A stretch of 64,000 nt of DNA, from NCBI GenBank assembly GCA_965219415.1, contig CBDCNP010000002.1:608001-672000 (forward strand), written 5' to 3'. Positions 1,556-18,326 of the stretch are shown here, one piece after another (position 1 is the first letter of the stretch; each line of letters starts with the position of its first letter). The stretch is from Candidatus Marinacidobacterales bacterium (GTDB taxonomy: Bacteria; Acidobacteriota; Vicinamibacteria; Marinacidobacterales; DATDRI01). The position numbers were made by a program, and so were the translations under genes. The notes below the pieces were generated by a model, which was not told the DNA's origin, did no database searches, and saw only the letters and a list, made by a program, of their open reading frames with translations.

Positions 1556-1601
1556 GAACTTCCTCCTGGACGTCGAGTCCTCACCTGCTAAACTCCTCGC
1601 G

Positions 1602-2072: not shown

Positions 2073-2076
2073 TTCC

Positions 2077-2105
2077 TTGCCTCATCTCTGAGGCCGCGTT
2101 ACAAT
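2077..2105 (+). promoter_or_regulatory. sigma70-like promoter upstream of the ccoN-like gene
   Basis: TTGCCT (2077-2082), 17-nt spacer, TACAAT (2100-2105). Confidence 0.5.
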
Positions 2106-2131
2106 CCTCGCCGCTTTTGACACCTTCGAGA

Positions 2132-3508
2132 ATGTTCAGAATGGCAAGTAACGAGCCCGGAAGCGCGAGCCTTCGCTTCTGCTACGCGTCGGTCTTTTGG
2201 CTGATCGTGCCGGGCGTTTTCGGCCTGATTCTAGCCACTTTCTTGTACGTCCCAGCCCTGGCCGACCAGCTCCCTCTCTCCATCAAGCCGTACTTGAGCT
2301 TCGGCCGGCTGAGACCGGCTCACGTGAACCTCGCGATCTTCGGTTGGCTCTCGCAGGTCTATTATGCCGGCATCCTCTTCATTATCCCTCGGCTCCTCCG
2401 CACCGAGCTCTACAGCGAGCGGCTCGCCAACGTGAACTGGTGCCTCTGGAATCTCATGGTCGCCGCGACGCTTATCACTCTTCCGATGGGACACACCCAA
2501 GGCCGCGAGTACGCGGAGATGATATGGCCGCTCGATCTGCTGTTCATTCTGAACATCGTGCTGTTGGCGATCAACATCTGGGGAACCGTTTCCCGCCGGC
2601 GCGAGCCCAAGATCTACGTGAGCGTCTGGAACTTCATGGCGGCAACGATGGTCATGGTGCCCATCTACGCGGTCGGCAACAAGATTTGGGATCCCTCCGG
2701 TGCCTACTACGGCATGAACGACAACATCGTGAACTACTTCTATGTTCACAATCTATTCAACGCATGGTTTACGACCGCGGGGATCGGGCTGGCTCTTTAT
2801 CTTCTGCCGAAGCTCACCGGAAAAGCGCTCTACAGTCACCGCCTAGGACTCTGGGGACTCTGGAGCGTCTGGACCGGACAACATCACCAACTCTACAGCC
2901 CGGCGCCCGATTGGTTGGAGTACCTCACCATCGTCTTCAGCATTCTGGCAGCCGTGCCGACGACGGCGTTCATGGTCAACTTCTTCATGACCATGCGCAC
3001 ACGCTGGCACCTCGCCGCTCAAGACGTCGCGCTTCGTTTCTTTGCGACCGGAGCGATCTTCTGGGGGCTCACCTGCGTGCAAGGCATCTCTCACTCGTTT
3101 CGAACTTTTTCGATGGTCGTGCATTTTACGAACTGGGTGGTTGGACACTCGCACCTTGCCTTTATGGCGGCCTACAGTTTTTGGGCTTTCGCACTCATCT
3201 ATCTGATCGTGCCGACACTCAGCGGCCGAAACATCTACAGCAAGAAACTGATGGAGTGGCACTATTGGCTGACCACGCTCGGCATGTTGATCTTCATGAT
3301 CTCGATGTGGGTGGCGGGGCTCATCCAAGGACAAAACTGGTCTTCTTATACGATCCCGTTCCTGCAAACCGTGATATCGATGAAACCTTACTTCGGGGCT
3401 CGCCTTATTGGGGGCGCCATCGCCGGCATCGGGATCGGTTGCTTCGCGTGGAATATCTGGCGGACGGCGCGCAGCGGAACCCGTATTGCAAATGAGAGTA
3501 GACAATGA
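2132..3508 (+). CDS. ccoN: cbb3-type (C-family) heme-copper oxidoreductase subunit I-like, non-canonical active site
   Basis: FGRLRPAHVN, GREYAE, IYVSVW, YVHN, GQHH and GHSH motifs; about 12 TM segments; helix-VII Tyr absent. ATG at 2132 or 2141. Confidence 0.9.
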   Translation: MFRMASNEPGSASLRFCYASVFWLIVPGVFGLILATFLYVPALADQLPLSIKPYLSFGRLRPAHVNLAIFGWLSQVYYAGILFIIPRLLRTELYSERLANVNWCLWNLMVAATLITLPMGHTQGREYAEMIWPLDLLFILNIVLLAINIWGTVSRRREPKIYVSVWNFMAATMVMVPIYAVGNKIWDPSGAYYGMNDNIVNYFYVHNLFNAWFTTAGIGLALYLLPKLTGKALYSHRLGLWGLWSVWTGQHHQLYSPAPDWLEYLTIVFSILAAVPTTAFMVNFFMTMRTRWHLAAQDVALRFFATGAIFWGLTCVQGISHSFRTFSMVVHFTNWVVGHSHLAFMAAYSFWAFALIYLIVPTLSGRNIYSKKLMEWHYWLTTLGMLIFMISMWVAGLIQGQNWSSYTIPFLQTVISMKPYFGARLIGGAIAGIGIGCFAWNIWRTARSGTRIANESRQ

Positions 3509-3990
3509 GACCTAACCTGGTCTACCTTATCGGCGGCTCCCTGATCAGCTTGTTGCTCGGGATTATCGTCACCATTATTATCCCTGCGCAGGATCCGATC
3601 GGGCCTTCGCCGTTGGCCCAATCCTATTCCGAAGAAGAATTGAGGGGGCGTGATATCTATCTACGTGAGGGGTGCCATTACTGCCATACCCAGCAAGTCC
3701 GTGAGCCCGAGGCGGATCGTGGGATGGTGCGCCAGCGAGGCGATATCGGACCCGAGTCCGTACCGGGAGATTTCTACTATCAGTCCCCGGTTTTCTGGGG
3801 CACCCTCCGCCAGGGCATGGACTTGGCTCACGTCGCCTCCCGGAAGGGTATCGGAGACAACGTGGGCTGGCATGAGGACCACTTCAAAAACCCCCGGGCG
3901 TGGTCGCCCGGAACGGTCATGCCGTCCTATGACTATCTGTCTGCGGAAGAGATTCAGGCGCTCACCGCATATATATTGACGTTGAGGTAG
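3505..3990 (+). CDS. ccoO: cbb3-type subunit II (monoheme cytochrome c)
   Basis: GRDIYLREGCHYCHTQQVR, GMDLAHV, WHEDHFKNPR, PGTVMPSY; ATGA overlap with ccoN. Confidence 0.9.
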   Translation: MRPNLVYLIGGSLISLLLGIIVTIIIPAQDPIGPSPLAQSYSEEELRGRDIYLREGCHYCHTQQVREPEADRGMVRQRGDIGPESVPGDFYYQSPVFWGTLRQGMDLAHVASRKGIGDNVGWHEDHFKNPRAWSPGTVMPSYDYLSAEEIQALTAYILTLR

Positions 3991-3994
3991 GTCT

Positions 3995-4156
3995 ATGGTG
4001 TTCCCCGCAACTTGGCTGGTGCTGGCGACGGTAGCCATCATCTTGGTGCTCTTCGGCCTCGGGTACTACTGGGCGCGGAGCCACGGGCAGTTCGACGACA
4101 TCGAGATGGCGAAGTACTCCATGCTCGATAACGACAAGACCAACGATGAGCACTAA
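3995..4156 (+). CDS. ccoS: cbb3-type oxidase maturation protein CcoS/FixS (53 aa)
   Basis: Own translation MVFPATWLVLATVAIILVLFGLGYYWARSHGQFDDIEMAKYSMLDNDKTNDEH: TM helix followed by WAxxxGQFDD. Below the ORF-track size cutoff. Confidence 0.85.
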   Translation: MVFPATWLVLATVAIILVLFGLGYYWARSHGQFDDIEMAKYSMLDNDKTNDEH

Positions 4157-4397
4157 AGGAGCGCGGGAAGTACCGCCGGGCCACGACGATTTCGGGGGTG
4201 AGGTGCTGGTCGCCAACGGAAAACCGCCGCGTTGGGTGACCAAGGTTCCCTATCTGGCAATGGCGTTGGCGCTCGGGTACTACGCGCTGGTCCAGGCCAC
4301 CGATCCGGTAAACCTGGTCTTTGCGTCACTGTTCGTGATTTGGTTTCTCTACACACCCATTGCCCAGAAGAAGGGCTGGTTTTTCATCCCGATGTGA
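4146..4397 (+). CDS. small membrane protein resembling the CcoP/FixP N-terminal region, no heme motif
   Basis: GHDDFGGEVLVANGKPPRW resembles GHxxDGIxExxNPxPxWW; two TM helices; overlaps the ccoS stop. Confidence 0.55.
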   Translation: MSTKGAREVPPGHDDFGGEVLVANGKPPRWVTKVPYLAMALALGYYALVQATDPVNLVFASLFVIWFLYTPIAQKKGWFFIPM

Positions 4398-4493
4398 CAT
4401 GCCGAGGGGAGGTGACATCGATCAAATAGATTGAACAACTGCTTAGTGTGTCTCATCTTTTTTCAATTCACGCATTGAACTTGGAGGAAAGAA

Positions 4494-4928
4494 ATGGCCG
4501 ACAGAGCCGAACAAGCAAACAAGTATATGGAAGAGAAGATGTTCTTCACTCCCCGCATGTTCAAAGTAACCAACACGCTGGCACCGGAAGTCGGGGAGCG
4601 CTTCGCCGATTTTTACGAGTCGGTGTGGGCGGACGGCAACCTGCCCCGCAAGATCAAAGAGCTAATGTTCGTCTCCATTGGCGTGGCTTACATGTCGCCA
4701 CGCTGCATCATCCACGTTCAGCCCGCCATCAAGGCCGGTGCCACGGACGGCGAGATCTTCGAGTCAGTGTCGGTCGGTATGCTGGCGGCTGGGTTCGTGC
4801 CCGGCGGACCAGGCATCCCCTATGCCTTCGAATATGCCGCCAAGACGCTGGACATTGCAGCCAAGATCCGTAAGGGCGAAGACTTCGAGTATCTCCCTGG
4901 ACCCAAGTTCGACAAGGGCGTCGGCTAA
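4494..4928 (+). CDS. carboxymuconolactone decarboxylase/AhpD family protein
   Basis: LPRKIKELMFVSIGVAYMSPRCIIHVQPAIKAGATDGEIFE; GGAGG RBS. Confidence 0.85.
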   Translation: MADRAEQANKYMEEKMFFTPRMFKVTNTLAPEVGERFADFYESVWADGNLPRKIKELMFVSIGVAYMSPRCIIHVQPAIKAGATDGEIFESVSVGMLAAGFVPGGPGIPYAFEYAAKTLDIAAKIRKGEDFEYLPGPKFDKGVG

Positions 4929-4944
4929 GGACAACCGTCTCTGC

Positions 4945-4990: not shown

Positions 4991-5007
4991 CTAAGACAGA
5001 ACAACAC

Positions 5008-5814
5008 ATGAGTGAGCAGAAATTTCCTAATGACGGTCTTCTGGTCGGCTCCGCCTGGCTGGCCGACCATTTGAACGATGCGGATTTGCGACTGGTGGAA
5101 GTGACGGCGCCCGGTGCCGGATACAAGTTCGGGCATGTCGCAGGCGCCGTCTATCTGAATCTCGACGATGTGTTGACCGGGAAAGCCACCGGCGTCGAGC
5201 GAACGGTGGGCCCCATCGAAGAAGTGGCCGCCCTCCTTGGCCGACTGGGCCTTTCCCGAGACAAGACGATCGTCGTCTACGACGAGTTCGGGGGTACCCG
5301 GGCCTCACAAGCTTTTTGGCTTCTCGAGTACTTGGGCTGTGAGCAGGTGCATTCACTGGAAGGCGGCATCGAACGCTGGCTCGCCGAAAACCGCCCGACG
5401 ACGAGCGAGGCGCCCGATGTCCGAGAGGCGACCTTTACTCCCGCGATTCGTGAAGAGCGTCTCGCAACCGCGGATTGGATCTTGGATCGCCTAGAGAATT
5501 CCGATGTATCGGTCATCGACGCTCGCTCACCCGAGGAGTACGAAGACGGCCATATCCCGGGGGCCAGGAATCGATCCTGGGACAAGACTTTAGCGCGAAA
5601 AGCCTACCAGGCCTTTCGATCGCCCGAAGACCTAAAACGTGAATTCTCCGAGCTGGGTGCAAGCGAAGACAAAGAGATCGTCGCCTACTGCATGACGGGC
5701 GCGCGCTCCTCACACATCTACCTCGCTTTGCGTCTGTTGGGTTACACTCGGGTCCGGAATTATGACGGGTCCTGGACGGAATGGGGGTCCAGACGGGACC
5801 TACCAAAGGCCTGA
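5008..5814 (+). CDS. two-domain rhodanese (thiosulfate/3-mercaptopyruvate sulfurtransferase family)
   Basis: GHVAGA and GHIPGA domain signatures, active-site YCMTGARS, C-terminal YDGSWTEW. Confidence 0.9.
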   Translation: MSEQKFPNDGLLVGSAWLADHLNDADLRLVEVTAPGAGYKFGHVAGAVYLNLDDVLTGKATGVERTVGPIEEVAALLGRLGLSRDKTIVVYDEFGGTRASQAFWLLEYLGCEQVHSLEGGIERWLAENRPTTSEAPDVREATFTPAIREERLATADWILDRLENSDVSVIDARSPEEYEDGHIPGARNRSWDKTLARKAYQAFRSPEDLKREFSELGASEDKEIVAYCMTGARSSHIYLALRLLGYTRVRNYDGSWTEWGSRRDLPKA

Positions 5815-5892: not shown

Positions 5893-7065
5893 ATGGCTAC
5901 CAGTCAACTACCGCTGTTCCCGGTTACCGTCGTGGGCAGCTGGCCGAGACCCCAGTATCTCTTGGACGCGCTCAGGAAGCGCCAAAAGGGGAAGCTGAGC
6001 TTCGAAGAGTTTCAGAAAGTCGCCGACAAGGCGGTGTTGGAGCAGCTACGCTACCAAGACGAAGCGGGCGTCGACATTGTCAGCGATGGCGAGCAACGCC
6101 GAGACAATTTCTACTCGTTCGTCGTAGAGAAGCTGGACGGCGTCGAGCTGATGACCTTGGCGGATCTCATGGACCACGTCGAGGACAAAGCGGGGTTCGA
6201 CTCCATCCTGCGCAGCATGGACGCTCCGGCCTTCGGTATCAAGAACCCGACGGTAACCGGAAAGATAAAACCCAAGATGTCGCTGTCGCTCGACGAGTAC
6301 GAGTTCCTGAAACAGCATACCGACAAGCCCATCAAAATTCCCCTCCCTGGCCCATACATCTTGATCCGATCCATGTGGGTCAAAGGCGTCTCGGACAAGA
6401 TCTACCCCACCCAGGAAGATCTGGCCGTGGATATCGTCAAAATTCTTCGTGACGAGCTCATCGCCCTTCGTGATGCCGGAGTCGACTTCGTGCAATTCGA
6501 CGAACCCGTGCTCACCGACGTCGCTTTCAACCCTGCGGTGAAGGAACGCACGTTCATGTGCGCCTCGATGGCGGCGTCCTCGGGTGATCCGACCAAAGAG
6601 CTCCTGCTGGCGACGCGCATGATGAACAGTATCGTCGACGGCGTCGATGGCATCCGCACCGGCGTCCACGTGTGCCGTGGTAACTGGAGCCGCAAGGACG
6701 AGGTGTTGCTCAAGGGAAGCTATGAGCCGCTGGTCCCGACCATGATGGGGATGCATCTCGATCAGCTCGTCCTCGAGTACGCAACACCGCGTGCCGGTGA
6801 GCTCGCGGCCTTCTCGCACCATCCCAAGGAAAAGGAGATCGGACTGGGCGTTGTCAATCCTCGAACCGACGAGATGGAGTCGCCGGACTCGGTGGTCGAG
6901 CGAGTCAACGAGGCCCTGAAGTACTTCAAGCCCGAGCAGATTTATCTCAACCCCGATTGCGGTTTCGGAACCTTCGCCGAGCGGCCGATGAATCCTGCAG
7001 GGATCGCGGGAAAGAAATTGGCCGTCATCGGTGAGGCGGCCAAGAAGCTCCGTGCAAGCCACTAG
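5893..7065 (+). CDS. cobalamin-independent methionine synthase (MetE catalytic-domain) family Zn enzyme; candidate thiol alkyl/methyl transferase
   Basis: VVGSWPRP, SDGEQRR, QFDEP, Zn ligands HVC...E...NPDCG; 390 aa, single barrel only. Confidence 0.85.
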   Translation: MATSQLPLFPVTVVGSWPRPQYLLDALRKRQKGKLSFEEFQKVADKAVLEQLRYQDEAGVDIVSDGEQRRDNFYSFVVEKLDGVELMTLADLMDHVEDKAGFDSILRSMDAPAFGIKNPTVTGKIKPKMSLSLDEYEFLKQHTDKPIKIPLPGPYILIRSMWVKGVSDKIYPTQEDLAVDIVKILRDELIALRDAGVDFVQFDEPVLTDVAFNPAVKERTFMCASMAASSGDPTKELLLATRMMNSIVDGVDGIRTGVHVCRGNWSRKDEVLLKGSYEPLVPTMMGMHLDQLVLEYATPRAGELAAFSHHPKEKEIGLGVVNPRTDEMESPDSVVERVNEALKYFKPEQIYLNPDCGFGTFAERPMNPAGIAGKKLAVIGEAAKKLRASH

Positions 7066-7315: not shown

Positions 7316-7843
7316 ATGGAAGAATCGACCAAAATTAACGGGTTGGACATTGAGGAGACCCGGGAAGCCATCAAGACCGTAAGCGCCGTGGAGGGGGCAC
7401 CGAAGGCCCCCAAGAAATCACGGTGCAAATGGTTGACCGGTCTCAAATTCAGGACCTACGTACGGAACCACGTCTTCCTCGTCGATGAGCCCGCACACCT
7501 CGCGGGCGAGGATGAAAGCCCTAACTCGATGGAGTATGTGCTGGGAGCCTACGCCGCGTGTTTGGCCACCGGCTTCGTTCTCAACGCCAGCCAGAAGGGT
7601 ATCGAAATCCACAACCTCGAAGTGGCCGTGGACTCGACTCAGAACAACGTATTCACGTTTCTGGGTCTGGGGGGCGAAGGACACGCCGGGTTCGACACTA
7701 TCAACGCCAAGCTCTTCGTTCAGGCCGATGCGGACGAGGCCACGCTAAAAGACGTTTGGGCCCAGACCGTGGACACCTCTCCGGTGCACAACTCTCTGGC
7801 CCGGCCGGTGACCATCAATCCTGAGGTCGAGATCATTCCGTAG
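7316..7843 (+). CDS. OsmC/Ohr family protein
   Basis: DEPAHLAGEDESPNSMEYVLGAYAACL; the second Cys position reads SPV. Confidence 0.85.
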   Translation: MEESTKINGLDIEETREAIKTVSAVEGAPKAPKKSRCKWLTGLKFRTYVRNHVFLVDEPAHLAGEDESPNSMEYVLGAYAACLATGFVLNASQKGIEIHNLEVAVDSTQNNVFTFLGLGGEGHAGFDTINAKLFVQADADEATLKDVWAQTVDTSPVHNSLARPVTINPEVEIIP

Positions 7844-7915: not shown

Positions 7916-9316
7916 CTACCCTCCGGAAGCCTGGGGAGTGAGGGTGTATCCGAGAGCTTCGGCTGCCTTTTGTAAACCGTTGATGTGGTTTTGGCGAAAA
8001 CGGTCTTCGAAGGCGCGTTCGCCGATATCGATGTAATCGTGGCCATATTTGAGCATGCGGAAGACGAGCTGGGCGAGCTTGCGTGCTGTAGCAAAGACGG
8101 CGGTTTTGCCATCTTTACGGCGAGCAGTGCGGCGATAGTAAGCGCCTAGGGCGGTCTTGGAGCGGGAGAGAGATACAGCGGCCATACGTAAGGCACCGGC
8201 GATGCGATTGGAGCCGGCGCCGTTGCGGCGTTTGGAGAGTTGTTTACCGCCGGAGATAGGGCGACGTGGGGCGAGATGTAGCCATGAGACGAAGAATTTT
8301 TCGAAAGGGAAATCAGAGAGGTCGAATCCGATCTCGGTGAGGACAATGGCGGCGGTGGTTGGACTGATTCCGTCGATCCTGGTGAGGTCGCATCCAGCAA
8401 AACGCCACAGCTCGTTGCGCAGTTCGCTCTCGCCCCGATGCTGCATGTCGTATCGTTTTTGCGGATTTGGATGAGCTGGCACGTTGTGGTGTCTGCGTTG
8501 TGGCGGCTGGAGTTCGATGAGCACTTCAAGGATACGCTGGTCGAACAGTTCGACTTCGGCTTGTAGCGCATCGTAGAGACGCAGAGCCGATGCGAGGTTG
8601 AAAAGATGCTCGTCACGCCAAGTGCCGGTAAGATGCTCGGCGATCTCCTCTTCGCTCTTCTTGCAGCGTTGGTCACGAAATGCAGCCAGCTTTGACGGGT
8701 CACGCTCACCATCAACGATGGCGCGCACGATGAGCATGCCTGTGACGCCGGTAATGTCGGTCACTGCACGATGGACCTGAACGTTCATTTGGTCCAGAGA
8801 TTTCTGTATCCATTGAATAGCTCGACTACACTGCTCGATGAGGCTGCAACGCTGTCGGTGAAGCGAGCGTAGGCGGCAGATCGACTCACCAGGACGAAAC
8901 GAGCCTCGCAACAGACCACAGCTGTGTAACAGCTGCAGCCACTGACAGTCATGCATATCGGTTTTACGCCCGGGGACGTTTTTTAACTGTCGAGCATTTA
9001 CCAGCACCACTTCAAGACCCCGCGATTCAAGCAACTCATAAATCGGAATCCAATAGACGTAGGTGCTTTCCATCGCAACCGATTCGACTCCTTGCTCGAT
9101 GAGCCAATCCCCCATTTGATTCAAAGACGGTGTCGTTGGGGAAAACACCCGCACGTTCACTTTACCGTCCGACAAGGCCGGCCCACATACCCAATGCTCA
9201 CGACTGCCAATATCGATGCCTGCTACCTTCGACCTTGTCACCGGCAGCGATTGCGGCGACAGATTCTTCGACTTCCTACCACTCTTTTTCACGCGCTTGT
9301 GCATCACTGACCTCAC
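7916..9316 (-). CDS. IS110-family transposase/recombinase (DEDD)
   Basis: AGIDIG, VAMEST, GRKTDMHDCQW, IDGIS, PISGG, ATARKLA. Confidence 0.95.
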   Translation of the reverse strand: MRSVMHKRVKKSGRKSKNLSPQSLPVTRSKVAGIDIGSREHWVCGPALSDGKVNVRVFSPTTPSLNQMGDWLIEQGVESVAMESTYVYWIPIYELLESRGLEVVLVNARQLKNVPGRKTDMHDCQWLQLLHSCGLLRGSFRPGESICRLRSLHRQRCSLIEQCSRAIQWIQKSLDQMNVQVHRAVTDITGVTGMLIVRAIVDGERDPSKLAAFRDQRCKKSEEEIAEHLTGTWRDEHLFNLASALRLYDALQAEVELFDQRILEVLIELQPPQRRHHNVPAHPNPQKRYDMQHRGESELRNELWRFAGCDLTRIDGISPTTAAIVLTEIGFDLSDFPFEKFFVSWLHLAPRRPISGGKQLSKRRNGAGSNRIAGALRMAAVSLSRSKTALGAYYRRTARRKDGKTAVFATARKLAQLVFRMLKYGHDYIDIGERAFEDRFRQNHINGLQKAAEALGYTLTPQASGG

Positions 9317-9329
9317 ATGTATTTTGTGA

Positions 9330-9540: not shown

Positions 9541-10655
9541 TCACGAAGGCCGCCGAAGCTCGACTACACCCTCACTCCCCAGCACTGCGAGAGGTCGTTT
9601 CGGGTCAAGTGCTGTCCAACCGAATCCCCGGCGAACGTACCGGTCTTCGCCGGACGCAGGATCACGTGATCCAAGATTGGAAACGGTCGCACGCTGTAGG
9701 ACTCCAGAGTCTCGGGAAATCATGCCGGCGCTGGCTCGCGGTTCGGTCTGGAAGCCAGACGGTTTTCTCTGAGAACGTCTCTTTAGGGGCAAGGGCTTTT
9801 CGATGACACCCAATGGCCCTTCCCAAGTCAGCCGGTTGGGAGCCCAGCCCTTGACCTTCAATCGCCCTCCGGTGATCGCCGCGTGACAGACCGCGCAGAG
9901 CGTGTGGAGATTCCAGGTCTCATCGGGACCGCCACGAGCCCGCGGAATGATGTGATTCGCGGTTAGAGCGGTTCGATTACTGCACCCGGGCCGGGTGCAC
10001 TTCCATCCGTCCCGCTCCGCGACTTTCCGAACATAGCCACCGTCAGTTTCCGGACCGTCTCCGAATGCAGGCGTTGTTGCATACCCACAAAGCGCCTCCG
10101 CGCACATGAGGTCGAAGACTTCGATGTCGCTCAGTGTTTTCCCCGCCAATCGCTCGAGGGCTTCCCGCGCCTGCTCCCAAGCTTCGACGCGTTCGCCCTT
10201 CGAGAACAAAGAAGAGGGATTTCCTCGTCGTCGGAGGCTGTTTCCTTTTCACTTCCTGCTCGAGCTGACGATTGCTCATGCTGTTACAGCGGTCGAGCCA
10301 CTTGGCCTCGGTCTTCGGTGTCGCGACTTTCACGACTTCCCTCGCCTTGGTCCAAGGAATGTCCCCTCGCCGGAAGGCCTTCTTCAACCTAGGCAACTCT
10401 TCGAAACGCTCCGCCATGTGCAACAGCGAGCGCGTCTTTCGATCCTCGAAGCCGAGACTTTCGCGGGCGTAGTCGACGGTCGAGGCAAAGCCGTACCTGA
10501 GATAAAGCCGTCGGGTCTCGACTTCCTGAAGATAGAAGCACAAGACGGACTCCACGCGGCGATGCACGCGGGCCGCGGCGACGAGGCCCCGATCGACCTC
10601 GCTCGGGGGGAAGACCTTTCTTCATTTCGAGAGCGGCTGCAGCAGACAGGGACAT
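9541..10655 (-). pseudogene. DUF222-like/HNH endonuclease, split by two frameshifts (~10.6 kb and ~10.2 kb)
   Basis: GFASTVDYARESLGF...GDIPWTKAREVVKVATP, then RDGWKCTRPGCSNR...NHIIPRARGGPDETWNLHTLCAVCH. The frameshifts may be sequencing errors. Confidence 0.75.
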
Positions 10656-11072
10656 GACACTAACTCCTTTTAAAATGAATGGCTTAACAAGAAATCTTCA
10701 CACTTCAATATAGGAGTATGTTAGGTGAAAGTCAAGAGTATTTAAGTTGTGTAATTATCTGAAAACAAAAGGATTAGAAGAAAAATCGGATGGTGAGAGA
10801 TCTGGGCGTTACCTCTTAACTTGCTGATAAAAAGCCACTTGCCTACTGCTTCGCGTCAAGACCGGATGTGATCGAAGGTCCGAGTCCCCCGAGCCGCCCG
10901 GGGTGTTCTGCTTCCCCTCTGGTCAAGTCCTATCGGCTAGGACAAACCGAAGCTTCCGCTACACCTTCAGTCCCCTATACCTGCTGGACGGTCGTTCCGC
11001 CGCGGCTAGCCTCATGGCAACTCCCCATCTTGGCAGCAAGCCAGTTCAATCTTGTAAAATACCCAGTTGACG

Positions 11073-11966
11073 ATGAAGAACCTGGTTCCACTGCCGTATC
11101 GCCGTGTCTCCGTCCAGCCTTACCAAGGCCAGATGACGGAGCCAGCCATCCGCGCCCACCTGATGGGCCGCGAGACCTATCGGCGCACGGATTTCGTCGT
11201 CCTCAGGCAGGGGCAACAGACCGCGGTCGTCGAGGTCACTGCCCCCGACCGAGAGAGCCTCTTCAGCCCCATCGATTCCGTCCGCATCGTGGCCCTGCCC
11301 GAAACATGTGTCTTCGTCGAAGCCTCAGAGACCGACCCGGCCAACCCGTCCTCCCTCGCCGCCAAGGCGCACGAGCTCGGAATCGAAGGCGAGCAAACAC
11401 TCGTGGTACGCGGCAAGTACGAGCACGTCGGTTTCATTCATCACCCCGAACCAATGGTCATCCGTGTCGTGGAGGTCTCTCCGCCCGAGCCACCCAAATT
11501 GTTCGACCTCGCCCAACGCGTACTCGGTTACGCGGAGCTTCCACCGATCCGGTTGGAGCTCACACGGATCGACCTGATCGAGCTCGCCGAAGGCCACTCT
11601 CCTTCCTCCTTCTTAGTGCCTTGCCGCTCTGGAGGACTGGAAGCGCTCAAGGCGCCGGTGCACTTTCTGGACGAGCGCCCCGAGCGGCACGACTGGACGA
11701 TGATCGGATGCGAACGCAGTTTGCAGTTCCACCGCCATTTCTACGGCGACGAGCCGCCCCGCATAGAGCTCTGCCCTCGCCAACTGGCGGGCAACAACGA
11801 CACACCAACGCTACTCAAATGCTGCCTGCTCGAGTTCGACACCGAGCTCGACGGAAGCACGGTGGCGGCGCCGTGGGGTGCCGACTTGGCGATGGTGGAA
11901 AAGGCCATCCGCCAACTCGTGGCGGTCGCCGAGCCCGCACCCGCCGGCGCATCTAAAGTTCCCTGA
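11073..11966 (+). CDS. Cys-rich conserved hypothetical protein, probable XcbA-like component of the CoM biosynthesis cluster
   Basis: First gene of the comA operon; LVPCR, IGCERSLQFH, LCP, LLKCCLLE and PWGA motifs. The XcbA assignment rests on position and recall. Confidence 0.6.
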   Translation: MKNLVPLPYRRVSVQPYQGQMTEPAIRAHLMGRETYRRTDFVVLRQGQQTAVVEVTAPDRESLFSPIDSVRIVALPETCVFVEASETDPANPSSLAAKAHELGIEGEQTLVVRGKYEHVGFIHHPEPMVIRVVEVSPPEPPKLFDLAQRVLGYAELPPIRLELTRIDLIELAEGHSPSSFLVPCRSGGLEALKAPVHFLDERPERHDWTMIGCERSLQFHRHFYGDEPPRIELCPRQLAGNNDTPTLLKCCLLEFDTELDGSTVAAPWGADLAMVEKAIRQLVAVAEPAPAGASKVP

Positions 11967-11991
11967 CCGCAATCACCGGAGGAAAGCCTTC

Positions 11992-12828
11992 ATGACCAAA
12001 GCCTGGACTGCCATCTTTCCCGAACTGGCGGCCCGCTCGCGCAAGCCGCGCACTCGCGGGGTGACGATGCTCCTCGACAAGTGCCAGGGCCCCTCGGCCA
12101 CCGAAGATCTCTTGGCGATGTCGGGTGACTACATCGACTTCTGGAAGATGTCCTACGGGACATCGGCTCTCCTCGACGATGGTTTCCTACGTCGTAAGAT
12201 CGAAACCATCGGCCAGCACGACATCATCGTGCATCCCGGCGGTACATTGGCCGAATACGCGATCATGCAAGGTGTCTGCCGAGAATACGTCCGACACTGC
12301 CAGACCCTCGGCTTCACCGGCGTCGAGATTTCGGATGGCACCATCGAGCTCGCGCCCGGTGCCCGACGGGATGCGATTCGGTACGCACGGGATCTCGGCT
12401 TAACCGTTGTCACCGAGGTGGGCAAGAAAGACCCCAACGAACAACCTCCGGTGGAGCTACTCGCAGAGCAAGCACTGGCCGACTTCGATTCGGGAGCCTC
12501 CTGGGTGATCGTCGACGCGCGGGAGTCTGGCCGAGGAGTCGGGGTATTCGATGCGGATGGCTCCGTCCGCGAGGACGCGGTGGATGCCATGGTCGACATC
12601 CTAGAAGGCCATCTCGATAAGATGATCTGGGAGACACCGCTCAAGAAACAGCAGGAGTACTTCGTCATTCGCTTCGGGCCGCACATCGGGCTGGGCAACA
12701 TCCAACCGCGCGACGTCCTGGCGCTGGAAGCGATGCGCACCGGGATCCGCTTCGAGACGTTCCACGCTTTTGCCAAGAAGCTCCTCGAGGAAGCCCAGCA
12801 GGCTCGAGAGACGGCGGACGAGGGATAA
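11992..12828 (+). CDS. comA: phosphosulfolactate synthase (ComA/XcbB)
   Basis: RSRKPRTRGVTMLLDK, YIDFWKMSYGT, PGGTLAE, VEISDG, TEVGKK, ARESG, LEAMRTGIR; GGAGG RBS. Confidence 0.92.
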   Translation: MTKAWTAIFPELAARSRKPRTRGVTMLLDKCQGPSATEDLLAMSGDYIDFWKMSYGTSALLDDGFLRRKIETIGQHDIIVHPGGTLAEYAIMQGVCREYVRHCQTLGFTGVEISDGTIELAPGARRDAIRYARDLGLTVVTEVGKKDPNEQPPVELLAEQALADFDSGASWVIVDARESGRGVGVFDADGSVREDAVDAMVDILEGHLDKMIWETPLKKQQEYFVIRFGPHIGLGNIQPRDVLALEAMRTGIRFETFHAFAKKLLEEAQQARETADEG

Positions 12829-12837
12829 AGGATCGCG

Positions 12838-14415
12838 ATGGTGTTTGGCGAACCCCCGTCCGACGAGCTCATCCGAACCGCGTACGCACGCGAAGCGGGC
12901 GACACGGCTATCCTTTGTAAGGGGATGAGCCTGGCCGACATCGCCCACGTCGTGGGGCTGGTCGAATCCAAGATCATTCCCCGCCAAGCGGGAGGCGAGC
13001 TCCTGTGGGCATTGCTGGAAATCCATCCTTCACCGCCGATGGATTTTGCTGTCGATCCCGCCCGCGGTGATTCCTACTCCAACCGGGAGTCCTACCTGAG
13101 AATGCTTACCCCCTCGACCGGGTGGCTGTCGGTGGGCCGAGCGAGACGTGAGTCCACGACCACCGGTTATCGAATCACCGTCCGAGAGCGGCTGCTGAGC
13201 TTGGCCGGCGCACTCGGCGACTGCGCTACGGCGGCACTCGAGCAATGTGACGCGCATCGAGCGACTCTCTTCCCCGACTACACCTACCTGCAGCCGGCTC
13301 AACCGACGGTGTTCGCGCATTACCTGCTCACGTTCGTCTACCCAATGCTCCGGGACCTCGAGCGTCTCGGGGGCGCCTTCGCGCGTACCAACGTTTCGCC
13401 GGCCGGGTGTGGGAGCGTCAACGGAAGCCGACTCCCCTTGGACCGCGAAGCGCTGTCCGCCATGCTCGGCTTCGATCGCCCCATCCCGCATGCACGCGAC
13501 GCCATGTGGCAGGCGGACGGTCCGATCGAAAACGCCGCCCTCATCACTGGAGCGCTGGTCAACCTCGACCGCTTGGCCGAAGACCTGCAGATCTTTTCGA
13601 CATCGGAGTTCGGGCTCGTCGAGTTGGCCGACCGCCACGCGCGCGCGAGCGTGATCATGCCGCAGAAGAAAAACCCGTACTCGCTCGCCTATCTCCGCGG
13701 GCTCGCCGGGGCCTCCATCGGCACTCTCGCTGCGATGGCTGCGGTCGCGAAGACACCTTCCGGACAGATCGACAATCGCATGTTCGCCTATGGCGACGTA
13801 CCACGGGCGCTCGATCACGCGGCGGACGCAGCACGCTTGATGGCCGACGTGCTCCGAGGGATCACGGTGAAGACGGATGTCGCCGAGCGTCGAGCCGCTC
13901 AAGACTTTCTCGGTGCGACCGATTTAGCGGAAGTCATCATGATCGAGTGCGAGATCGACTATAAGACGGCGCACCGCATCGTGGCTCGGGCCATCCGCGA
14001 AGCGCTCGACTCGGGCGAATCGGGGTTGTCCGTGAAACGGCTGGAAGCGAGCGCCGAAGCCACCGTTGGAAAACAGCTCGGTCTCTCGAAGAACAGAATT
14101 CGCGAATCGCTCGACCCGGCGAGTATCGTCGCGACACGCAGCGGCATCGGTGGCGCAGCGAGCGAATCGGTGGGTGAGATGATCGCCGAATGCAGGAAGG
14201 GCCTGAAGGAAAATGAAACGTGGCGTCTCACCACGGGAAGGAAGCTCGTCGAGGCCGAAACTCGGCTGGGAATGAAGGCCACGGTACTGAAGATCGTGCC
14301 CGCCGAGGGGGACGGCTCATCTGGAGCCGAGCGAGCCGAATCGGATTCTTGGGAAAAGGAGTTCGAAGATCTTCCCAAGATGCCTCCGGGGCGCCGCCGG
14401 TTTCCAGCCGAATGA
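12838..14415 (+). CDS. argininosuccinate lyase-like aspartase/fumarase superfamily enzyme (XcbC-like)
   Basis: YTYLQPAQP, SVIMPQKKNP, ATDLAE; directly after comA. Confidence 0.85.
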   Translation: MVFGEPPSDELIRTAYAREAGDTAILCKGMSLADIAHVVGLVESKIIPRQAGGELLWALLEIHPSPPMDFAVDPARGDSYSNRESYLRMLTPSTGWLSVGRARRESTTTGYRITVRERLLSLAGALGDCATAALEQCDAHRATLFPDYTYLQPAQPTVFAHYLLTFVYPMLRDLERLGGAFARTNVSPAGCGSVNGSRLPLDREALSAMLGFDRPIPHARDAMWQADGPIENAALITGALVNLDRLAEDLQIFSTSEFGLVELADRHARASVIMPQKKNPYSLAYLRGLAGASIGTLAAMAAVAKTPSGQIDNRMFAYGDVPRALDHAADAARLMADVLRGITVKTDVAERRAAQDFLGATDLAEVIMIECEIDYKTAHRIVARAIREALDSGESGLSVKRLEASAEATVGKQLGLSKNRIRESLDPASIVATRSGIGGAASESVGEMIAECRKGLKENETWRLTTGRKLVEAETRLGMKATVLKIVPAEGDGSSGAERAESDSWEKEFEDLPKMPPGRRRFPAE

Positions 14416-14439: not shown

Positions 14440-15819
14440 ATGCCATCTCACATTTCCGATTCGCTGATCTACCGGGGTTCATGGGGAACCGAGGAGACGC
14501 GTGCGATATTCGACGACGTGCCCCGAACCCGCGCGTGGCTCGAGATCCTGGCGGTGCTCGCGGAAAGCCAAGCGGAGGTGGGTCTCATCCCCGCCGACGA
14601 TGCCCAGAAAGTGGCGCGCGCCTGCCGAGAGATGACGCTCGACGCCGAGTTCTTCGAGGAGGTCCGCAAGGGTTTCGAGGAAACGAATCACACCACGCTC
14701 GGCCTCATTCGCGCCGTCCAGAAGCGTTGCCCGGAAGGGTCCGGCGAATGGGTCTACTACGGTGCCACCGTGCAAGACATCGCCGACACCTGGACCATGA
14801 TGGCGGTCGCGCAAGTCTGGTCCATCGCGTTCCGAGAGTCGAGAGCGCTCGAAGAGAATCTTCTTCGACTGGCGGAGACACACAAAAACACGGTCATGGC
14901 CGGTCGCACGCACGGCCAGCCGGGACTACCTATCACCTTCGGTTTCAAGGCAGCGGTTTGGGCGAGCGAAACTCGACGCCACATCGCGCGCCTCAAAGAC
15001 ATTAGACATCGCCTCGGAGTGGGGCAACTTGCGGGCGGCGTAGGCAGCATGTCCTCGTTGGGCCCGCAGGCGTTCACGCTGCAGGAAAAGTTCTGTTCTC
15101 GTCTGGGGCTTCAATCGCCGGATATCTCATGGACCACCGCGCGGGACGTTCTGGTGGAGTGGTTCCAGCTGCTCACTTTGATATCAGGTACCGCGGACAA
15201 GATGGGGCATGAGATCTACAACCTGCAGCGTCCCGAGATCGGCGAGGTCAGTGAAGGTTTCGTACCGGGAACGGTGGGGAGCATCACCATGCCACACAAG
15301 CGTAACCCCGAGATCGCGGAGCACCTGGGAACGCTGGCAAGAGTGATCCGACACAACACGGCTCTCCTGGCTGAATCTCAAGTGCACGACCACGAGCGGG
15401 ACGGACGGGCTTGGAAATCGGAGTGGGCGGTTCTCGCCGAGACCTCGATGGCGGCGGCGAAATTGCTCGAGTTAACCAACACAATGACCGAACATCTCGA
15501 CGTCCACGCCGACCGGGCGCTCGCTAATCTGGAAGCGAGCCAAGGCTTCGTGCTGTCAGAAGCCGTCATGCTGAAGCTTGCGGAGTATGTTGGCAAGCAA
15601 AGTGCCCACACGCTGGTGTACGAGACCGCGATGAAGGCACACGACGAGGGGCGTCCGCTAAAGGACGCCATTCTGAAGAATGATGCCATCTGCAAGCACC
15701 TGTCCGCGGAGGCCATCGAGGATCTGTTCGACTACCGGCGACATGCGGGTTTCTGTAGCGAGCAAGTCGATCGGGTGCTGGAGCGGGCGAGGAAGGAGAG
15801 GGAGAGCGACTCGGAATGA
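14440..15819 (+). CDS. adenylosuccinate lyase-like enzyme (XcbD-like)
   Basis: GATVQDI, MAGRTHGQPG, GSITMPHKRNPE, HERD. Confidence 0.85.
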   Translation: MPSHISDSLIYRGSWGTEETRAIFDDVPRTRAWLEILAVLAESQAEVGLIPADDAQKVARACREMTLDAEFFEEVRKGFEETNHTTLGLIRAVQKRCPEGSGEWVYYGATVQDIADTWTMMAVAQVWSIAFRESRALEENLLRLAETHKNTVMAGRTHGQPGLPITFGFKAAVWASETRRHIARLKDIRHRLGVGQLAGGVGSMSSLGPQAFTLQEKFCSRLGLQSPDISWTTARDVLVEWFQLLTLISGTADKMGHEIYNLQRPEIGEVSEGFVPGTVGSITMPHKRNPEIAEHLGTLARVIRHNTALLAESQVHDHERDGRAWKSEWAVLAETSMAAAKLLELTNTMTEHLDVHADRALANLEASQGFVLSEAVMLKLAEYVGKQSAHTLVYETAMKAHDEGRPLKDAILKNDAICKHLSAEAIEDLFDYRRHAGFCSEQVDRVLERARKERESDSE

Positions 15820-16235
15820 AAACCTATTTCTACATCGGGCTGGCACTGATTCCACTCACCTTCGGAGCGTGTGGCAACGGAGCCGGCTCCAAGAGTGCCG
15901 AAGCCAACATCAAACCCCTCCCTATCGGCAACCCGGCAGACGGAGAAAGCGTCTTCATGGGTACGTGCATCAAGTGCCACGGCAAAGATGCAACCGGAAT
16001 CGAAGGTTCAGGAACGAACCTGACCATCAGCGATTTCGTCAGAAATCATGCGGATGCCGAGTTGGTGGACTACATCAAGACCGGACGCCCGATGAACGAC
16101 CCACTCAACACGACGGGCATCGCCATGCCCCCGTACGGCGCCAATCCGATGCTAACCGATCAGGATCTCGCAGACGTCGTTTCGTACCTCAGGACCGTCC
16201 TTAGAACCTCGACCATGGAAAACAACGACAAGTGA
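15816..16235 (+). CDS. monoheme cytochrome c, probable lipoprotein
   Basis: Lipobox-like FGAC, CIKCHG heme motif, distal MPP; ATGA overlap with the upstream gene. Confidence 0.85.
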   Translation: MKTYFYIGLALIPLTFGACGNGAGSKSAEANIKPLPIGNPADGESVFMGTCIKCHGKDATGIEGSGTNLTISDFVRNHADAELVDYIKTGRPMNDPLNTTGIAMPPYGANPMLTDQDLADVVSYLRTVLRTSTMENNDK

Positions 16236-16251: not shown

Positions 16252-17247
16252 ATGTCGACACCCTCTCGTTTCGAGCTAGCCATTCTACCTACACCCCTCG
16301 TCGAGGCCTCGCGTTTATCGCGAGCTCTCGAGGGTCCCCGAATCCTTATCAAGCGCGACGACCTGACGGGTTTCGGTTTCGGTGGCAACAAAGTACGTGG
16401 ACTCGAGTATTCCATCGCCGACGCCACCGCCAAAGAAGCCGATGTTGTCGTCACCGGTGCGGGACCGCAATCGAATCACATCCGCGCCACCGCGGCCGCG
16501 GCGCGGGCAGCGGGGCTCGATGTGGTCGCCGTCATGCACGGCGAGCGACCCGCCGAGACGCAGGGCAATCTTCTTCTCGATCAATGGCTAGATGTCGAGA
16601 CGCGATTCACAAATGATCCCGACCGCAGCCTCTTGGATCAAAAGATCGAGGAAGTCGCGGAGGAGCTCCGGCAATCGGGGCGACGACCGTATGTCATTCC
16701 TCGGGGAGGTTCTTCGGCGATCAGTGCCTGCGGTTACGTGCAGTGTGCCCGCGAATTGGGAGACCAGCTCGTAGATCTAGGTGCTCGACCGCACTGGCTG
16801 ATCCTGGCCACCGGAGGCGGCGGCACGCATGCGGGCCTCCTCGCCGGTTCGAAGATCTACGATGCGCCGTATCGCATTCTCGGTGTCACCGTAAGCCGCC
16901 CGGCCGATGAGTGCGAGGAGCGGATCGCACACCTGGCCCGCGAGGCGGCACAGCTCTTCCGACCTCAAGGGGAAGCCATCCACATCACCCCCGACGACAT
17001 CTCGGTCCGCGACGGTTTTATCGGTGACGGGTATGGGATCCCCTCACCTGAGGGCATCGAAGCGATCCGCCTGCTGAGCCGGACAGAGGGGTTGTTCTTG
17101 GATCCGACTTACACCGGTAAGGCCATGGCGGGGCTCATCGGCGAGATCCGATCGGGGCGCATTAGAAAAGGCGAGACGGTCGTCTTCGTTCACACCGGCG
17201 GAGAGCCTGCCCTCTTTGCCCACCCGGAGATCGCGACGCGTTCATGA
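16252..17247 (+). CDS. PLP-dependent D-cysteine desulfhydrase family enzyme (XcbE-like)
   Basis: IKRDDLTGFGFGGNKVR, QSNH, LDPTYTGKAM, HTGG. Confidence 0.9.
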   Translation: MSTPSRFELAILPTPLVEASRLSRALEGPRILIKRDDLTGFGFGGNKVRGLEYSIADATAKEADVVVTGAGPQSNHIRATAAAARAAGLDVVAVMHGERPAETQGNLLLDQWLDVETRFTNDPDRSLLDQKIEEVAEELRQSGRRPYVIPRGGSSAISACGYVQCARELGDQLVDLGARPHWLILATGGGGTHAGLLAGSKIYDAPYRILGVTVSRPADECEERIAHLAREAAQLFRPQGEAIHITPDDISVRDGFIGDGYGIPSPEGIEAIRLLSRTEGLFLDPTYTGKAMAGLIGEIRSGRIRKGETVVFVHTGGEPALFAHPEIATRS

Positions 17248-18326
17248 AGAAGAGCCTGCCCGCTGCGACGTACCTGACTGCCACGCTCTTACTAGTCTTA
17301 CTCACAGGGCTCACCGGCGGCGCGCCGCGGGAAGAGCCTCACGCCATCTGGGAAGCCGACAACCCGATCCAGCCGATCCCCGCGAGTCCTCTGGGCATAG
17401 ATATACGGCTCCATCGCCTGAAGGACCCCCCCACTCCCGAAACGGTGCGACTCGGTCGATGGCTTTTTTTCGATGAACGACTCTCTGCCGATGGGACGGT
17501 CTCCTGCGGGACCTGCCATCGTCCGGAGAACGCGTTTTCCGAGCCGAAACCGGTGTCGACCGGAGTTCATGGGCAAACGGGAACCCGCAAGGCCCCGACG
17601 ATCGTAAACCTGTCGAGAAGCCTCTACCCATCTCTCTTTTGGGACGGTCGAGCCGCAACGCTCGAAGCACAGGCTCTGCTCCCGATCGTCAATCCGATCG
17701 AAATGGGAAACAGCGTGGAGGCGGCTCTCGAAACACTTCGCTCCATCGAGGGTTACCGGAAGTATTTCGAGGAAGCCTTTGGATCACGCGAGGTCACCCC
17801 ACAACGCGTAACACGTGCCATCGCCGATTACGAGAGGACACGACGGAGTGGCAACTCGCCTTGGGACCGATGGAGCGCCGGAGATGCGAGCGCGCTTTCC
17901 GATGCGGCGCAGTTGGGAAGGCAAATCTTCTTTGGAAGGGGACGCTGCACGCGTTGCCATAACGCGCCGGATTTCACCGACGACGAGTTCCACAACGAAG
18001 GCATCGGATGGGTTCCCGAGACACAATCCTTCCTCGACGAGGGTCGCTTCGCGGTGAGCAAATTGGGCACCGATCGGGGCGCGTTCAAGACTCCCACTCT
18101 ACGGGACGTCGGCCTCCACCCGCCCTTCATGCACGACGGTTCCATCGCAACCCTCCGAGAGGTCGTTGAACACTACAACCGAGGGGGAAACCCCAATCCC
18201 TACCTGGATCCCGTTATCGAACCGCTCGACCTGAAGGAGCCGCAGCTCGAAGGGCTCGTCGCGTTCCTCGAAGCGCTCGCCGGCGAAAGCTACCGGGACG
18301 AGGCGCCCGCAACTTTCCCCAAATGA
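17244..18326 (+). CDS. di-heme cytochrome c peroxidase/MauG family protein
   Basis: LGRWLFFDERLS, CGTCH, FWDGRA, CTRCH, FKTPTLR, PFMHDG; signal peptide; ATGA overlap. Confidence 0.9.
   Translation: MKKSLPAATYLTATLLLVLLTGLTGGAPREEPHAIWEADNPIQPIPASPLGIDIRLHRLKDPPTPETVRLGRWLFFDERLSADGTVSCGTCHRPENAFSEPKPVSTGVHGQTGTRKAPTIVNLSRSLYPSLFWDGRAATLEAQALLPIVNPIEMGNSVEAALETLRSIEGYRKYFEEAFGSREVTPQRVTRAIADYERTRRSGNSPWDRWSAGDASALSDAAQLGRQIFFGRGRCTRCHNAPDFTDDEFHNEGIGWVPETQSFLDEGRFAVSKLGTDRGAFKTPTLRDVGLHPPFMHDGSIATLREVVEHYNRGGNPNPYLDPVIEPLDLKEPQLEGLVAFLEALAGESYRDEAPATFPK

Follow-up and report, generated by a model that had tools for sequence, protein, structure and literature searches.

The window analysed here, a 64,000-nucleotide stretch of DNA from a Candidatus Marinacidobacterales bacterium (Acidobacteriota), encodes at positions 2132 to 3508 a homologue of CcoN, the catalytic subunit of cbb3-type oxygen reductases. 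We refer to this protein as CcoN'. It is not a damaged allele and belongs to a conserved, monophyletic clade that lacks the tyrosine of the His-Tyr cofactor. The CcoN' operon is co-inherited in two phyla with xcbABCDE, the genes for coenzyme M (CoM) biosynthesis. Judging from their sequences, the proteins of the clade are probably a conserved offshoot of the cbb3 oxidases with a different job from O2 reduction, and gene context makes it likely that this job, whatever the substrate, belongs to an island of CoM and sulfur genes. The reading that we favour, with a probability of about 0.4, is that CcoN' would form the core of a non-pumping, two-electron haem-copper reductase that resembles the nitric oxide reductases (NORs) and guards this island.

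CcoN' retains the metal ligands of CcoN and lacks the cofactor tyrosine

The Pfam COX1 model matched CcoN' at 273.9 bits, and the ccoN equivalog model TIGR00780 matched at 289.9 bits, half of its cut-off of 583.15. The best PDB matches were CcoN chains (233-235 bits, ~30% identity), compared with 24 bits for NorB. An AlphaFold model of CcoN' had an overall predicted local distance difference test score (pLDDT) of 84.6 and a predicted template modelling (TM) score of 0.89, and was weak locally, with pLDDT values of 51-61 at residues 241-260 and low values also at 195-198. Its fold gave TM-scores of 0.89-0.90 to CcoN versus 0.78-0.82 to NorB. An earlier reading of this sequence (the original prediction) had derived CcoN' from the C family of haem-copper oxidases (HCOs), and these comparisons support that derivation.

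The original prediction had also described six His ligands, a shortened spacing before the His pair, a Ser at the position of the cross-link Tyr and a change of HNAVG to HNLFN, and all of these were found. The translation contains the motifs PAHVN (H64), YVHN (H206), GQHH (H251/H252) and GHSH (H339/H341), and the spacing from H206 to H251 is 45 residues, not 50. In a HMMER alignment with Pseudomonas stutzeri CcoN (3mk7_A), a 5-residue gap in the query lies over the stretch that holds the cross-link Tyr (LWGLWS-----VWTGQHH in CcoN', FWALITVYIWAGPHH in 3mk7_A); at the gap, P. stutzeri CcoN reads LITVY before IWAGPHH. Counting back from the His pair, the Tyr position (six residues before the pair) is occupied by Ser245, and HNLFN is aligned with HNAVG. 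Changes at a Ser and a His of the K(C) proton channel had been proposed as well. By hand count on the same alignment, the equivalents of S240 and H243 are Gly239 and Gly242. The loss of S240 held up and is seen in nearly all of the clade; the change at H243 is real but not diagnostic, Gly being present there also in 24/36 Tyr-bearing relatives.

To place these residues, 117 clade proteins were compared with 36 Tyr-bearing C-family representatives that have all six His, every one of which carries the helix-VII Tyr. Positions are given in P. stutzeri numbering, in which H207/H257/H258 and W203 are backed by passages of PMC3578206 and the other numbers were hand-counted on the alignment. The six His and the positions aligned with E122 and E125 were kept in 117/117 clade proteins. 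At G211 (His+4), Asn was found in 117/117 clade proteins, compared with Gly (32) or Ala (4) in the 36 relatives. P256 is replaced by Gln (114) or Glu (3) in the clade and is variable in the relatives. W203 is replaced by Tyr (115) or Phe (2), with Trp in 24 and Gly in 10 of the 36 relatives. This clade-specific Tyr, Y202 in CcoN', takes the place of a conserved Trp one helical turn before the CuB His (H206), and a role for that Trp is stated in a passage of PMC3578206.

Three further positions set the clade apart. Y223 (Tyr in 36/36 relatives) is Leu in 80 clade proteins, Tyr in 20 and Phe in 17; S240 (Ser in 30/36) is Ala in 78, Gly in 38 and Ser in 1; and Y317 (Tyr in 34/36) is Trp in 114 and Tyr in 3. 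T215 and N289 are retained. In CcoN' itself the clade-typical residues are N210, Q250, Y202, L222, G239 and W311; Gln in place of E323 and Cys315 are not clade-specific. T215, Y223, S240, N289 and Y317 are what we take to be the residues of the K(C) channel. On that assignment, the cofactor Tyr would have disappeared together with most of the proton path feeding it. The original prediction had suggested, with caution, that CcoN' is not an ordinary O2 reductase, and the loss of three presumed K(C) positions along with the Tyr strengthens this suggestion.

The Tyr-less proteins form a conserved clade

A word-index search returned 948 homologous proteins at E<=0.001 among 8000 scored candidates. 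Among the 120 matches listed of these 948, identities were 57-95% and most sequences came from metagenome-assembled genomes (MAGs) of Anaerolineae/Chloroflexi; wherever they carry a public name, it is cbb3 subunit I. The motif [YF]VHN[LIMV]FN together with the spacing of 45 was present in the query and in 120/120 listed homologues, and the helix-VII Tyr was missing in 121/121. The sole record among 122 to miss the motif, P0002, is a CcoO-like protein. An exhaustive search of 50%-identity representatives gave 2439 matches at E<=0.001 and 184 at 1e-30, among which the motif occurred in one full-length protein (P0123, 60% identity) and otherwise in some fragments only. The next representatives, P0125 (46%), P0126 (43%) and P0127 (40%), have a spacing of 50, the Tyr and Gly at His+4.

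A tree was made from 47 representatives and clade members with all six His. The nine clade members formed one branch with a support of 100 in the Shimodaira-Hasegawa-like approximate likelihood ratio test (SH-aLRT), and of 99 when the active-site columns (residues 198-258) were dropped and the genome's own quinol-type NOR (qNOR) was used as outgroup. The original prediction had offered HNxxN plus the deletion as a possible clade marker, and the alignment and the tree bear this out. The clade was placed inside the Tyr-bearing C-family set, with support of only 83-89 at the nesting nodes and a long outgroup branch. Because the clade nests among Tyr-bearing C-family proteins, the simplest reading of these sequences, though unproven, is that the Tyr was lost secondarily, the ancestor having been of the oxidase type.

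The sequence of the window was also recovered independently. Contigs from two public runs, each belonging to a different study, match the window over 900-7121 and 900-4513 without a single mismatch. The clade is found in Anaerolineales, Acidobacteriota and Gemmatimonadota, and the operon is conserved across three phyla.

The exhaustive search also returned many CcoN-like representatives that lack some or all of the six His (P0134, P0137, P0163, P0169, P0171, P0172, P0186, P0197 and others). At 27-38% identity to CcoN', they appear to be C-family descendants that have degenerated and probably carry no cofactor.

The operon encodes a predicted, reduced cbb3-like complex

We collected 80 loci with the gene, 20 from species-representative genomes and 60 from metagenomes, which correspond to 67 distinct loci. 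The metagenome loci were retrieved via the clade's own motif peptides. The presence of neighbours was determined by targeted tblastn and counted only where the flank sufficed. The gene for the mono-haem c subunit CcoO' followed CcoN' in 57/57 assessable distinct loci, that for a CcoS-like maturation protein was present in 47/52, and that for an 83-residue protein, TM83, in 42/48. The most faithful neighbour outside the oxidase genes encodes an AhpD-like protein of the CMD family (40/44). The coding frames of CcoN', CcoO', CcoS and TM83 overlap or are spaced 4 nt, the start of CcoO' overlapping the stop of CcoN' (Table 1). CcoO' aligns to approximately residues 28-148 of the 203-aa CcoO, and the C-terminal part of CcoO has no counterpart. 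A NorC match to CcoO' was sought at E<=0.01 and none was found, only CcoO chains.

TM83 was weakly matched by PF14715 (FixP_N) in 7/14 members (best E 0.0097), and in hhalign its conserved GEIxVxNGxPPRW motif was aligned with GIQELNNPLPTWW in a canonical CcoP (E 0.0011, probability 20%). TM83 probably corresponds to the membrane anchor at the N terminus of CcoP, stripped of the two haem domains, and we predict it to be a third subunit. The predicted CcoN'-TM83 complex scored 0.63, compared with 0.01 for the best control, with a run agreement of at least 91% and a partner pLDDT of at least 77. The mark applied to such scores was passed by 58/80 solved complexes and by 2/110 mismatched pairs. 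The predicted contacts of TM83 are on the VI-VII loop and helix VIII of CcoN'. The pass may reflect the likeness of this pair to solved CcoN-CcoP complexes. In L025, a locus of a Tyr-bearing relative, a 60-aa open reading frame (ORF) after ccoO is weakly FixQ-like, not FixS.

A 170-nt metatranscriptome contig matches positions 4379-4548 with 1 difference and extends from the 3' end of the TM83 gene into the CMD gene. Other pieces of that run were 90-95% alike, hence from relatives, and the record of the RNA run is labelled 'sponge metagenome'. A second run, presumed to be RNA, contained no contig matching the window. The single 170-nt contig is a weak hint that the operon is transcribed, with DNA carry-over possible.

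The operon is co-inherited with coenzyme M synthesis

A bacterial CoM pathway, xcbABCDE, is described in passages of PMC9457059. By sequence, all five enzymes appear to be encoded in one cluster of this Acidobacteriota window (11067-17247, + strand), downstream of the CcoN' operon, and the gene order A-B-C-D-(cytochrome c)-E fits the pathway as those passages give it. The same cluster is also present in Anaerolineales and other MAGs, which extends bacterial CoM synthesis well beyond the alkene oxidisers. The small c-type cytochrome gene between xcbD and xcbE is lineage-specific: it occurs in the close relative L026 and not in the Anaerolineales locus L051, in which xcbE directly follows xcbD.

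Co-inheritance was assessed in three sets of genomes, whose related members do not count as independent cases. Of the 41 relatives of the window's genome, five had both CcoN' and XcbA, none had XcbA alone and none had an intact CcoN' alone. XcbA scored over its cut-off in G000, G001, G003, G006 and G018, exactly the genomes with a long CcoN' match. XcbA was present in 16/19 genomes holding clade loci, the three without it being MAGs of unknown completeness. In a sample of 101 genomes from the order of one Anaerolineales carrier, eight had both (three of them newly drawn), one had the clade gene only and none had XcbA only. No XcbA was found in the genome of the Tyr-bearing 40% relative.

Four relatives of the window's genome, G002 (L026, with one in-frame TAG), G012, G016 and G026, hold fragments of CcoN' and no XcbA. 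L026 retains xcbD, the cytochrome c, xcbE and the peroxidase gene. These four look like decaying copies of the island.

Sulfur-carrier genes and other neighbours

A gene for a TusA-DsrE fusion lies directly upstream of CcoN' in 35/56 assessable distinct loci; in three that were read in detail, 9-11 nt separate its end from CcoN'. The other sulfurtransferase of the islands is a tandem rhodanese. Of the 31 loci flanked by sufficient sequence on either side, 16 had only TusA-DsrE, nine had only the tandem rhodanese, none had both and six had neither. This suggests that one sulfurtransferase replaces the other. The island of the window is of the rhodanese type, with CMD followed by the rhodanese, a MetE-like protein and an OsmC-like protein, and no TusA-DsrE homologue was detected in the window's genome with the query from L019. 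The tandem rhodanese resembles 3-mercaptopyruvate sulfurtransferase, below the cut-off. The MetE-like protein was considered as a candidate epoxyalkane:CoM transferase; it matched only methionine-synthase models (below their cut-offs) and structures. An OsmC-like gene was present in 13/24 loci with at least 5 kb downstream.

The TusA-like domain of the fusions (e.g. L019:5167-5826) has Tyr at the cysteine position of CPxP, which we take to be the canonical TusA motif, and a conserved Cys immediately following the Asp (LDCxGxxYPxP). The DsrE-like half retains conserved Cys residues.

In 10/81 clustered records, which were not de-duplicated, CMD is followed by MtaA/CmuA-family methyltransferases (143.6 bits, below the cut-off). 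An AcsV/RACo-type corrinoid activator was present in 7/81. These genes suggest that in Anaerolineales methyl groups are transferred to or from CoM in a corrinoid-dependent manner. In two genomes with the methyltransferase module, xcbA lies ~11 kb further on the same contig. The module, seen downstream of CMD in L018, L024, L049, L050, L057, L059, L010 and L015, comprises two MtaA/CmuA-family (URO-D fold) methyltransferases, a TrmB-type regulator, small ORFs (one PF13769), an extra CMD and an AcsV/RACo-type activator. No corrinoid-binding protein or MT1 was recognised in it.

In the window, the island is broken between the OsmC gene and xcbA by an IS110-family transposase and an HNH endonuclease ORF. 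At 7908-9659, the summed contig depth was several-fold above the flanks, as expected of a multi-copy element. PilZ-domain and DUF1232 proteins are encoded directly upstream of CcoN', an arrangement restricted to the closest relatives (L016, L026, L029); in other lineages TusA-DsrE is found there. A GAF histidine kinase and a LuxR-type regulator, encoded upstream in six loci, were considered as a DosS-type gas sensor and rejected, the PDB matches covering the kinase core only.

Table 1. Features of the window around the CcoN' operon and the xcb cluster
Feature	Position	Strand	Basis and remarks
PilZ-domain and DUF1232 proteins	956-2072	+
CcoN', catalytic subunit, C-family-derived, Tyr-less	2132..3508	+	458 aa; HMM, PDB, fold and alignment matches
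CcoO', mono-haem c subunit	3505..3990	+	161 aa; FixO-type; CHYCH motif, conserved MP
CcoS/FixS-like maturation protein	3995..4156	+	53 aa; PF03597, E 6e-7, 29.5 bits vs cut-off 23.1
TM83	4146..4397	+	83 aa; two hydrophobic stretches (transmembrane helices by eye); weak CcoP-anchor likeness
CMD/AhpD-like protein	4494..4928	+	144 aa; single conserved Cys-x-x-His; PF02627; PDB AhpD E 5.6e-8
Tandem rhodanese sulfurtransferase	5005..5814	+	PF00581, two stretches; takes the place of TusA-DsrE in this island type
MetE-like thiol methyltransferase	5893..7065	+	390 aa, catalytic domain only; PF01717
OsmC-like protein	7316..7843	+	PF02566
IS110-family transposase	7916..9316	-	PF01548, PF02371; between OsmC gene and xcbA
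HNH endonuclease ORF	9541..10209	-	PF01844; same interruption
XcbA, last enzyme of bacterial CoM biosynthesis	11067..11966	+	NF052538, 446.5 bits vs cut-off 150; PF24830
ComA/XcbB, phosphosulfolactate synthase	11878..12828	+	PF02679, 273 bits
XcbC-like, aspartase/fumarase superfamily	12838..14415	+	NF052535, 569.5 bits vs cut-off 575
XcbD	14440..15819	+	NF052536, 652.5 bits vs cut-off 600
Small c-type cytochrome	15816..16235	+	139 aa; lipobox-like N-terminus; PF13442, PF00034
XcbE-like pyridoxal phosphate (PLP) enzyme	16252..17247	+	NF052537, 398.6 bits vs cut-off 450; CuyA 332
Di-haem cytochrome c peroxidase / MauG-like	17244..18326	+	PF03150; MauG and MbnH models below cut-offs

A proposed NOR-like reductase

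For the favoured reading, a NOR-like reductase that guards the island, we infer the loss of pumping and O2 reduction, the direction of the electrons, the two-electron chemistry, the substrate and the guarding role as follows. The complex would consist of CcoN', the shortened mono-haem CcoO' and an anchor-only remnant of CcoP, with its own CcoS assembly factor. It would descend from a cbb3-type O2 reductase and keep haem b, haem b3 and the three-His metal site. Proton-pumping four-electron O2 reduction would have been lost because the His-Tyr cofactor and three K(C) side chains are gone. Electrons would pass from a periplasmic c-type cytochrome, for which the small cytochrome encoded between xcbD and xcbE is a candidate, to haem c, haem b and the haem b3-metal centre, where a small membrane-permeant oxidant would be reduced. 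A polar shell of Asn210 (at the position of the FeB-binding Glu of NORs), Gln250 and Tyr202 would surround the substrate, and the complex would work like cytochrome c-type NOR (cNOR) or the Asn-type NORs. Most simply, its job would be to guard the thiol, corrinoid and Fe-S chemistry of the island, not denitrification.

We tentatively name NO, reduced to N2O, as the single most likely substrate. By analogy, NO would be favoured because all characterised Tyr-less HCOs are, to our knowledge, NORs, because Asn stands at the FeB-Glu position and because C-family oxidases reduce NO; the last reaction is described, at low rates, in passages of PMC11214002. Peroxide comes next and is improbable. The subunit make-up is NorCB-like, with one mono-haem c subunit and no dihaem CcoP, and the neighbours are of a defence type, including the AhpD-like protein in 40/44 loci, OsmC in 13/24 and the di-haem peroxidase in the window.

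Several observations weigh against this reading. No nir, nor-accessory or nos genes were found near the operon by ORF clustering, targeted tblastn or examination of the loci. The window's genome has neither a NirK over the cut-off nor a convincing NirS, and a complete qNOR (840 bits to 6qq5_A) is already among its genes. Among five Anaerolineales carriers, NirK was present in 3/5 and a convincing NirS in 0/5, with one weak, fragmentary match in G041. A general NO detoxifier is not expected to be co-inherited so strictly with CoM synthesis. The operon includes CcoS, a maturation protein of the Cu-oxidase type, and no NorD/NorQ-type genes, which are needed for FeB insertion. Because N2O inactivates cob(I)alamin, a NOR beside corrinoid enzymes is not obviously protective. 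Finally, Tyr202 (Tyr in 115/117 and Phe in 2 clade proteins) might act as a substitute redox residue, which would leave O2 chemistry possible. The qNOR gene itself, a 1408-3699 ORF on the minus strand of locus L003 (G000:C3:4499583-4503917), is named by no NCBIfam model.

Alternative readings

It is possible that CcoN' is an enzyme of a sulfur/CoM pathway, with a haem-copper centre that takes a reduced sulfur species as substrate, such as H2S, a thiol or sulfane sulfur bound to a carrier. Electrons would then run out to cytochrome c, or O2 would serve as oxygen donor, possibly yielding sulfite for phosphosulfolactate synthase, with cytoplasmic carriers (TusA-DsrE or the rhodanese) and the AhpD-like protein as partners. 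Sulfur chemistry had been the second alternative of the original prediction, and it gains support from gene context: the frequent and close TusA-DsrE gene upstream of CcoN' (35/56 loci, 9-11 nt in three), the mutual exclusion of TusA-DsrE and the tandem rhodanese (16, nine, none with both and six with neither, of 31) and the co-occurrence with XcbA in the 41-relative, 19-genome and 101-genome sets. XcbB uses sulfite, as stated in a passage of PMC9457059. The former K(C) region has been remodelled, and the VI-VII loop, which adjoins it, is the predicted docking site of TM83. On the other side, we know of no haem-copper oxidase family member that acts on sulfur, and both the haem c subunit and the three-His site are of the kind found in reductases. 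The buried active site lies close to the outer face, whereas the carriers have no signal peptide by eye. TusA-DsrE was undetected in the window's genome with the query used, and neither sulfurtransferase is nearby in 6/31 islands. The sulfurtransferases are equally explained as a sulfur supply for CoM synthesis. The more specific proposal, that CcoN' would be the first sulfur-working relative of the haem-copper oxidases, oxidising or oxygenating H2S or sulfane sulfur from TusA-DsrE or the rhodanese, is rather doubtful; its product might be the sulfite needed by phosphosulfolactate synthase.

An oxygen-directed enzyme is unlikely. Such an enzyme would reduce O2 to water, with Tyr202 or with no Tyr, or to peroxide, and would lower O2 around the O2-sensitive corrinoid and Fe-S enzymes of the island. 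It would suit the replacement of Trp by Tyr202 before the CuB His (115/117 in the clade vs Trp 24 and Gly 10 of 36), the retained CcoS and cbb3-like subunit set, the peroxide-handling families that adjoin the operon, and the RACo-type corrinoid activators and low-potential XcbA in the islands. However, Y223, S240 and Y317 are lost along with the Tyr, position 202 is Phe in two members, TIGR00780 matches at half its cut-off, and the window's genome has an A-family oxidase (480 bits to PF00115). The passages of Murali et al. 2024 (PMC11214002) on this point treat the cross-linked Tyr as a requirement for O2 reduction across the superfamily, and take all HCO families lacking it as not reducing O2.

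That CcoN' is a damaged allele, pseudogene or assembly artefact of an ordinary ccoN, as errors elsewhere in the window mentioned in the original prediction and the fragments in G002, G012, G016 and G026 might suggest, is scarcely credible: the frame is open and identical in contigs of two studies, the Tyr is missing in 121/121 clade proteins, the same deletion and substitutions, with many invariant residues, recur in 120/120 listed homologues down to 57% identity, and the operon is conserved across three phyla.

Implications

The clade represents what appears to be an independent loss of the O2-reduction machinery, Tyr and channel, within the C family, and would provide a natural experiment on the roles of the His-Tyr cofactor and the K(C) channel. 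Where surveys take ccoN as a sign of high-affinity aerobic respiration, they would miscount carriers. The strict co-inheritance with CoM synthesis, together with the MtaA-like methyltransferases and the sulfur carriers, points to an undescribed CoM-dependent metabolism beyond methanogens and alkene oxidisers, of which the CcoN' complex is a candidate membrane component. Should the substrate be NO, the clade would add one more to the unrecognised sources of N2O. If the substrate is a sulfur compound, this would be new chemistry for the superfamily and a categorically new enzyme, performing an integral step of an unrecognised CoM-based thiol/methyl metabolism in Anaerolineales, Acidobacteriota and Gemmatimonadota.

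Comparison with known systems

Full-text literature searches found no account of the clade, nor a link of HCOs to CoM or TusA. The main text of Murali et al. 2024 (PMC11214002), in its passages on the HCO families, has no CcoN-like Tyr-less family and no link to CoM. It is possible that the clade overlaps with its 'N2O red' family or is silently included in its 'C-family'.

By sequence and fold, CcoN' is closest to the CcoN of cbb3 oxidases (3mk7_A), with which it shares the six His and the positions aligned with E122 and E125. The two complexes also have in common a FixO-type haem c partner, CcoS and, in the clade, a trace of the CcoP anchor. Unlike CcoN, CcoN' lacks the helix-VII Tyr, has a helix VII shorter by 5 residues, replaces Y223, S240 and Y317, and has Asn at His+4, Gln before the His pair and Tyr for the Trp before the CuB His. 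The clade complex further differs in its short CcoO' and in having no dihaem CcoP. Some accepted cbb3 enzymes also have no CcoP.

With cNOR and qNOR, the clade shares the logic of a catalytic and a mono-haem c subunit and a polar residue at His+4, and all of them lack both the Tyr and a cytoplasmic proton channel. Passages of PMC11214002 describe cNOR and qNOR as likewise descending from the C-family branch. In contrast to them, CcoN' has Asn and not the FeB-binding Glu at His+4, a column in which the qNOR of its own genome has Glu. The relation to NorB is remote (24 bits, TM-scores of 0.78-0.82), and the haem c subunit is CcoO-like. Because the clade sits among Tyr-bearing C-family proteins in the tree, its origin would be separate from that of cNOR and qNOR.

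Figure 1 of Murali et al. reportedly has Asn at His+4 in the B-family bNOR and sNOR, in the place that the Tyr holds in the A and B families. If so, the His-x-x-x-Asn arrangement would match CcoN', and this resemblance would be convergent. bNOR and sNOR are described as having cupredoxin/CuA-type second subunits and as belonging to the B-family branch, whereas the clade is of the C family and is accompanied by a haem c subunit. The 'N2O red' family, compared here by its description in passages of Murali et al. 2024, is like the clade in being Tyr-less, on the C-family branch and of a proposed function that is neither O2 nor NO reduction. It is placed near cNOR and is tied to Flexibacter canadensis; the CcoN' clade is far closer to CcoN.

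The C family contains a second Tyr-less lineage, in Bacillota (P0180, P0202, P0273), with one member from a cultured Brevibacillus isolate. P0180 and P0202 resemble CcoN' in having six His, no Tyr and Asn at His+4 (HNAVN, HNEVN), and are annotated as cbb3 subunit I. Unlike CcoN', they retain Y223, S240 and Y317, lose T215 and N289, and have no 5-residue deletion, with a spacing of 51-53. In the tree they branch apart (SH-aLRT 100) and are not the sister group of the CcoN' clade. Since this lineage is present in a cultured isolate, it is testable.

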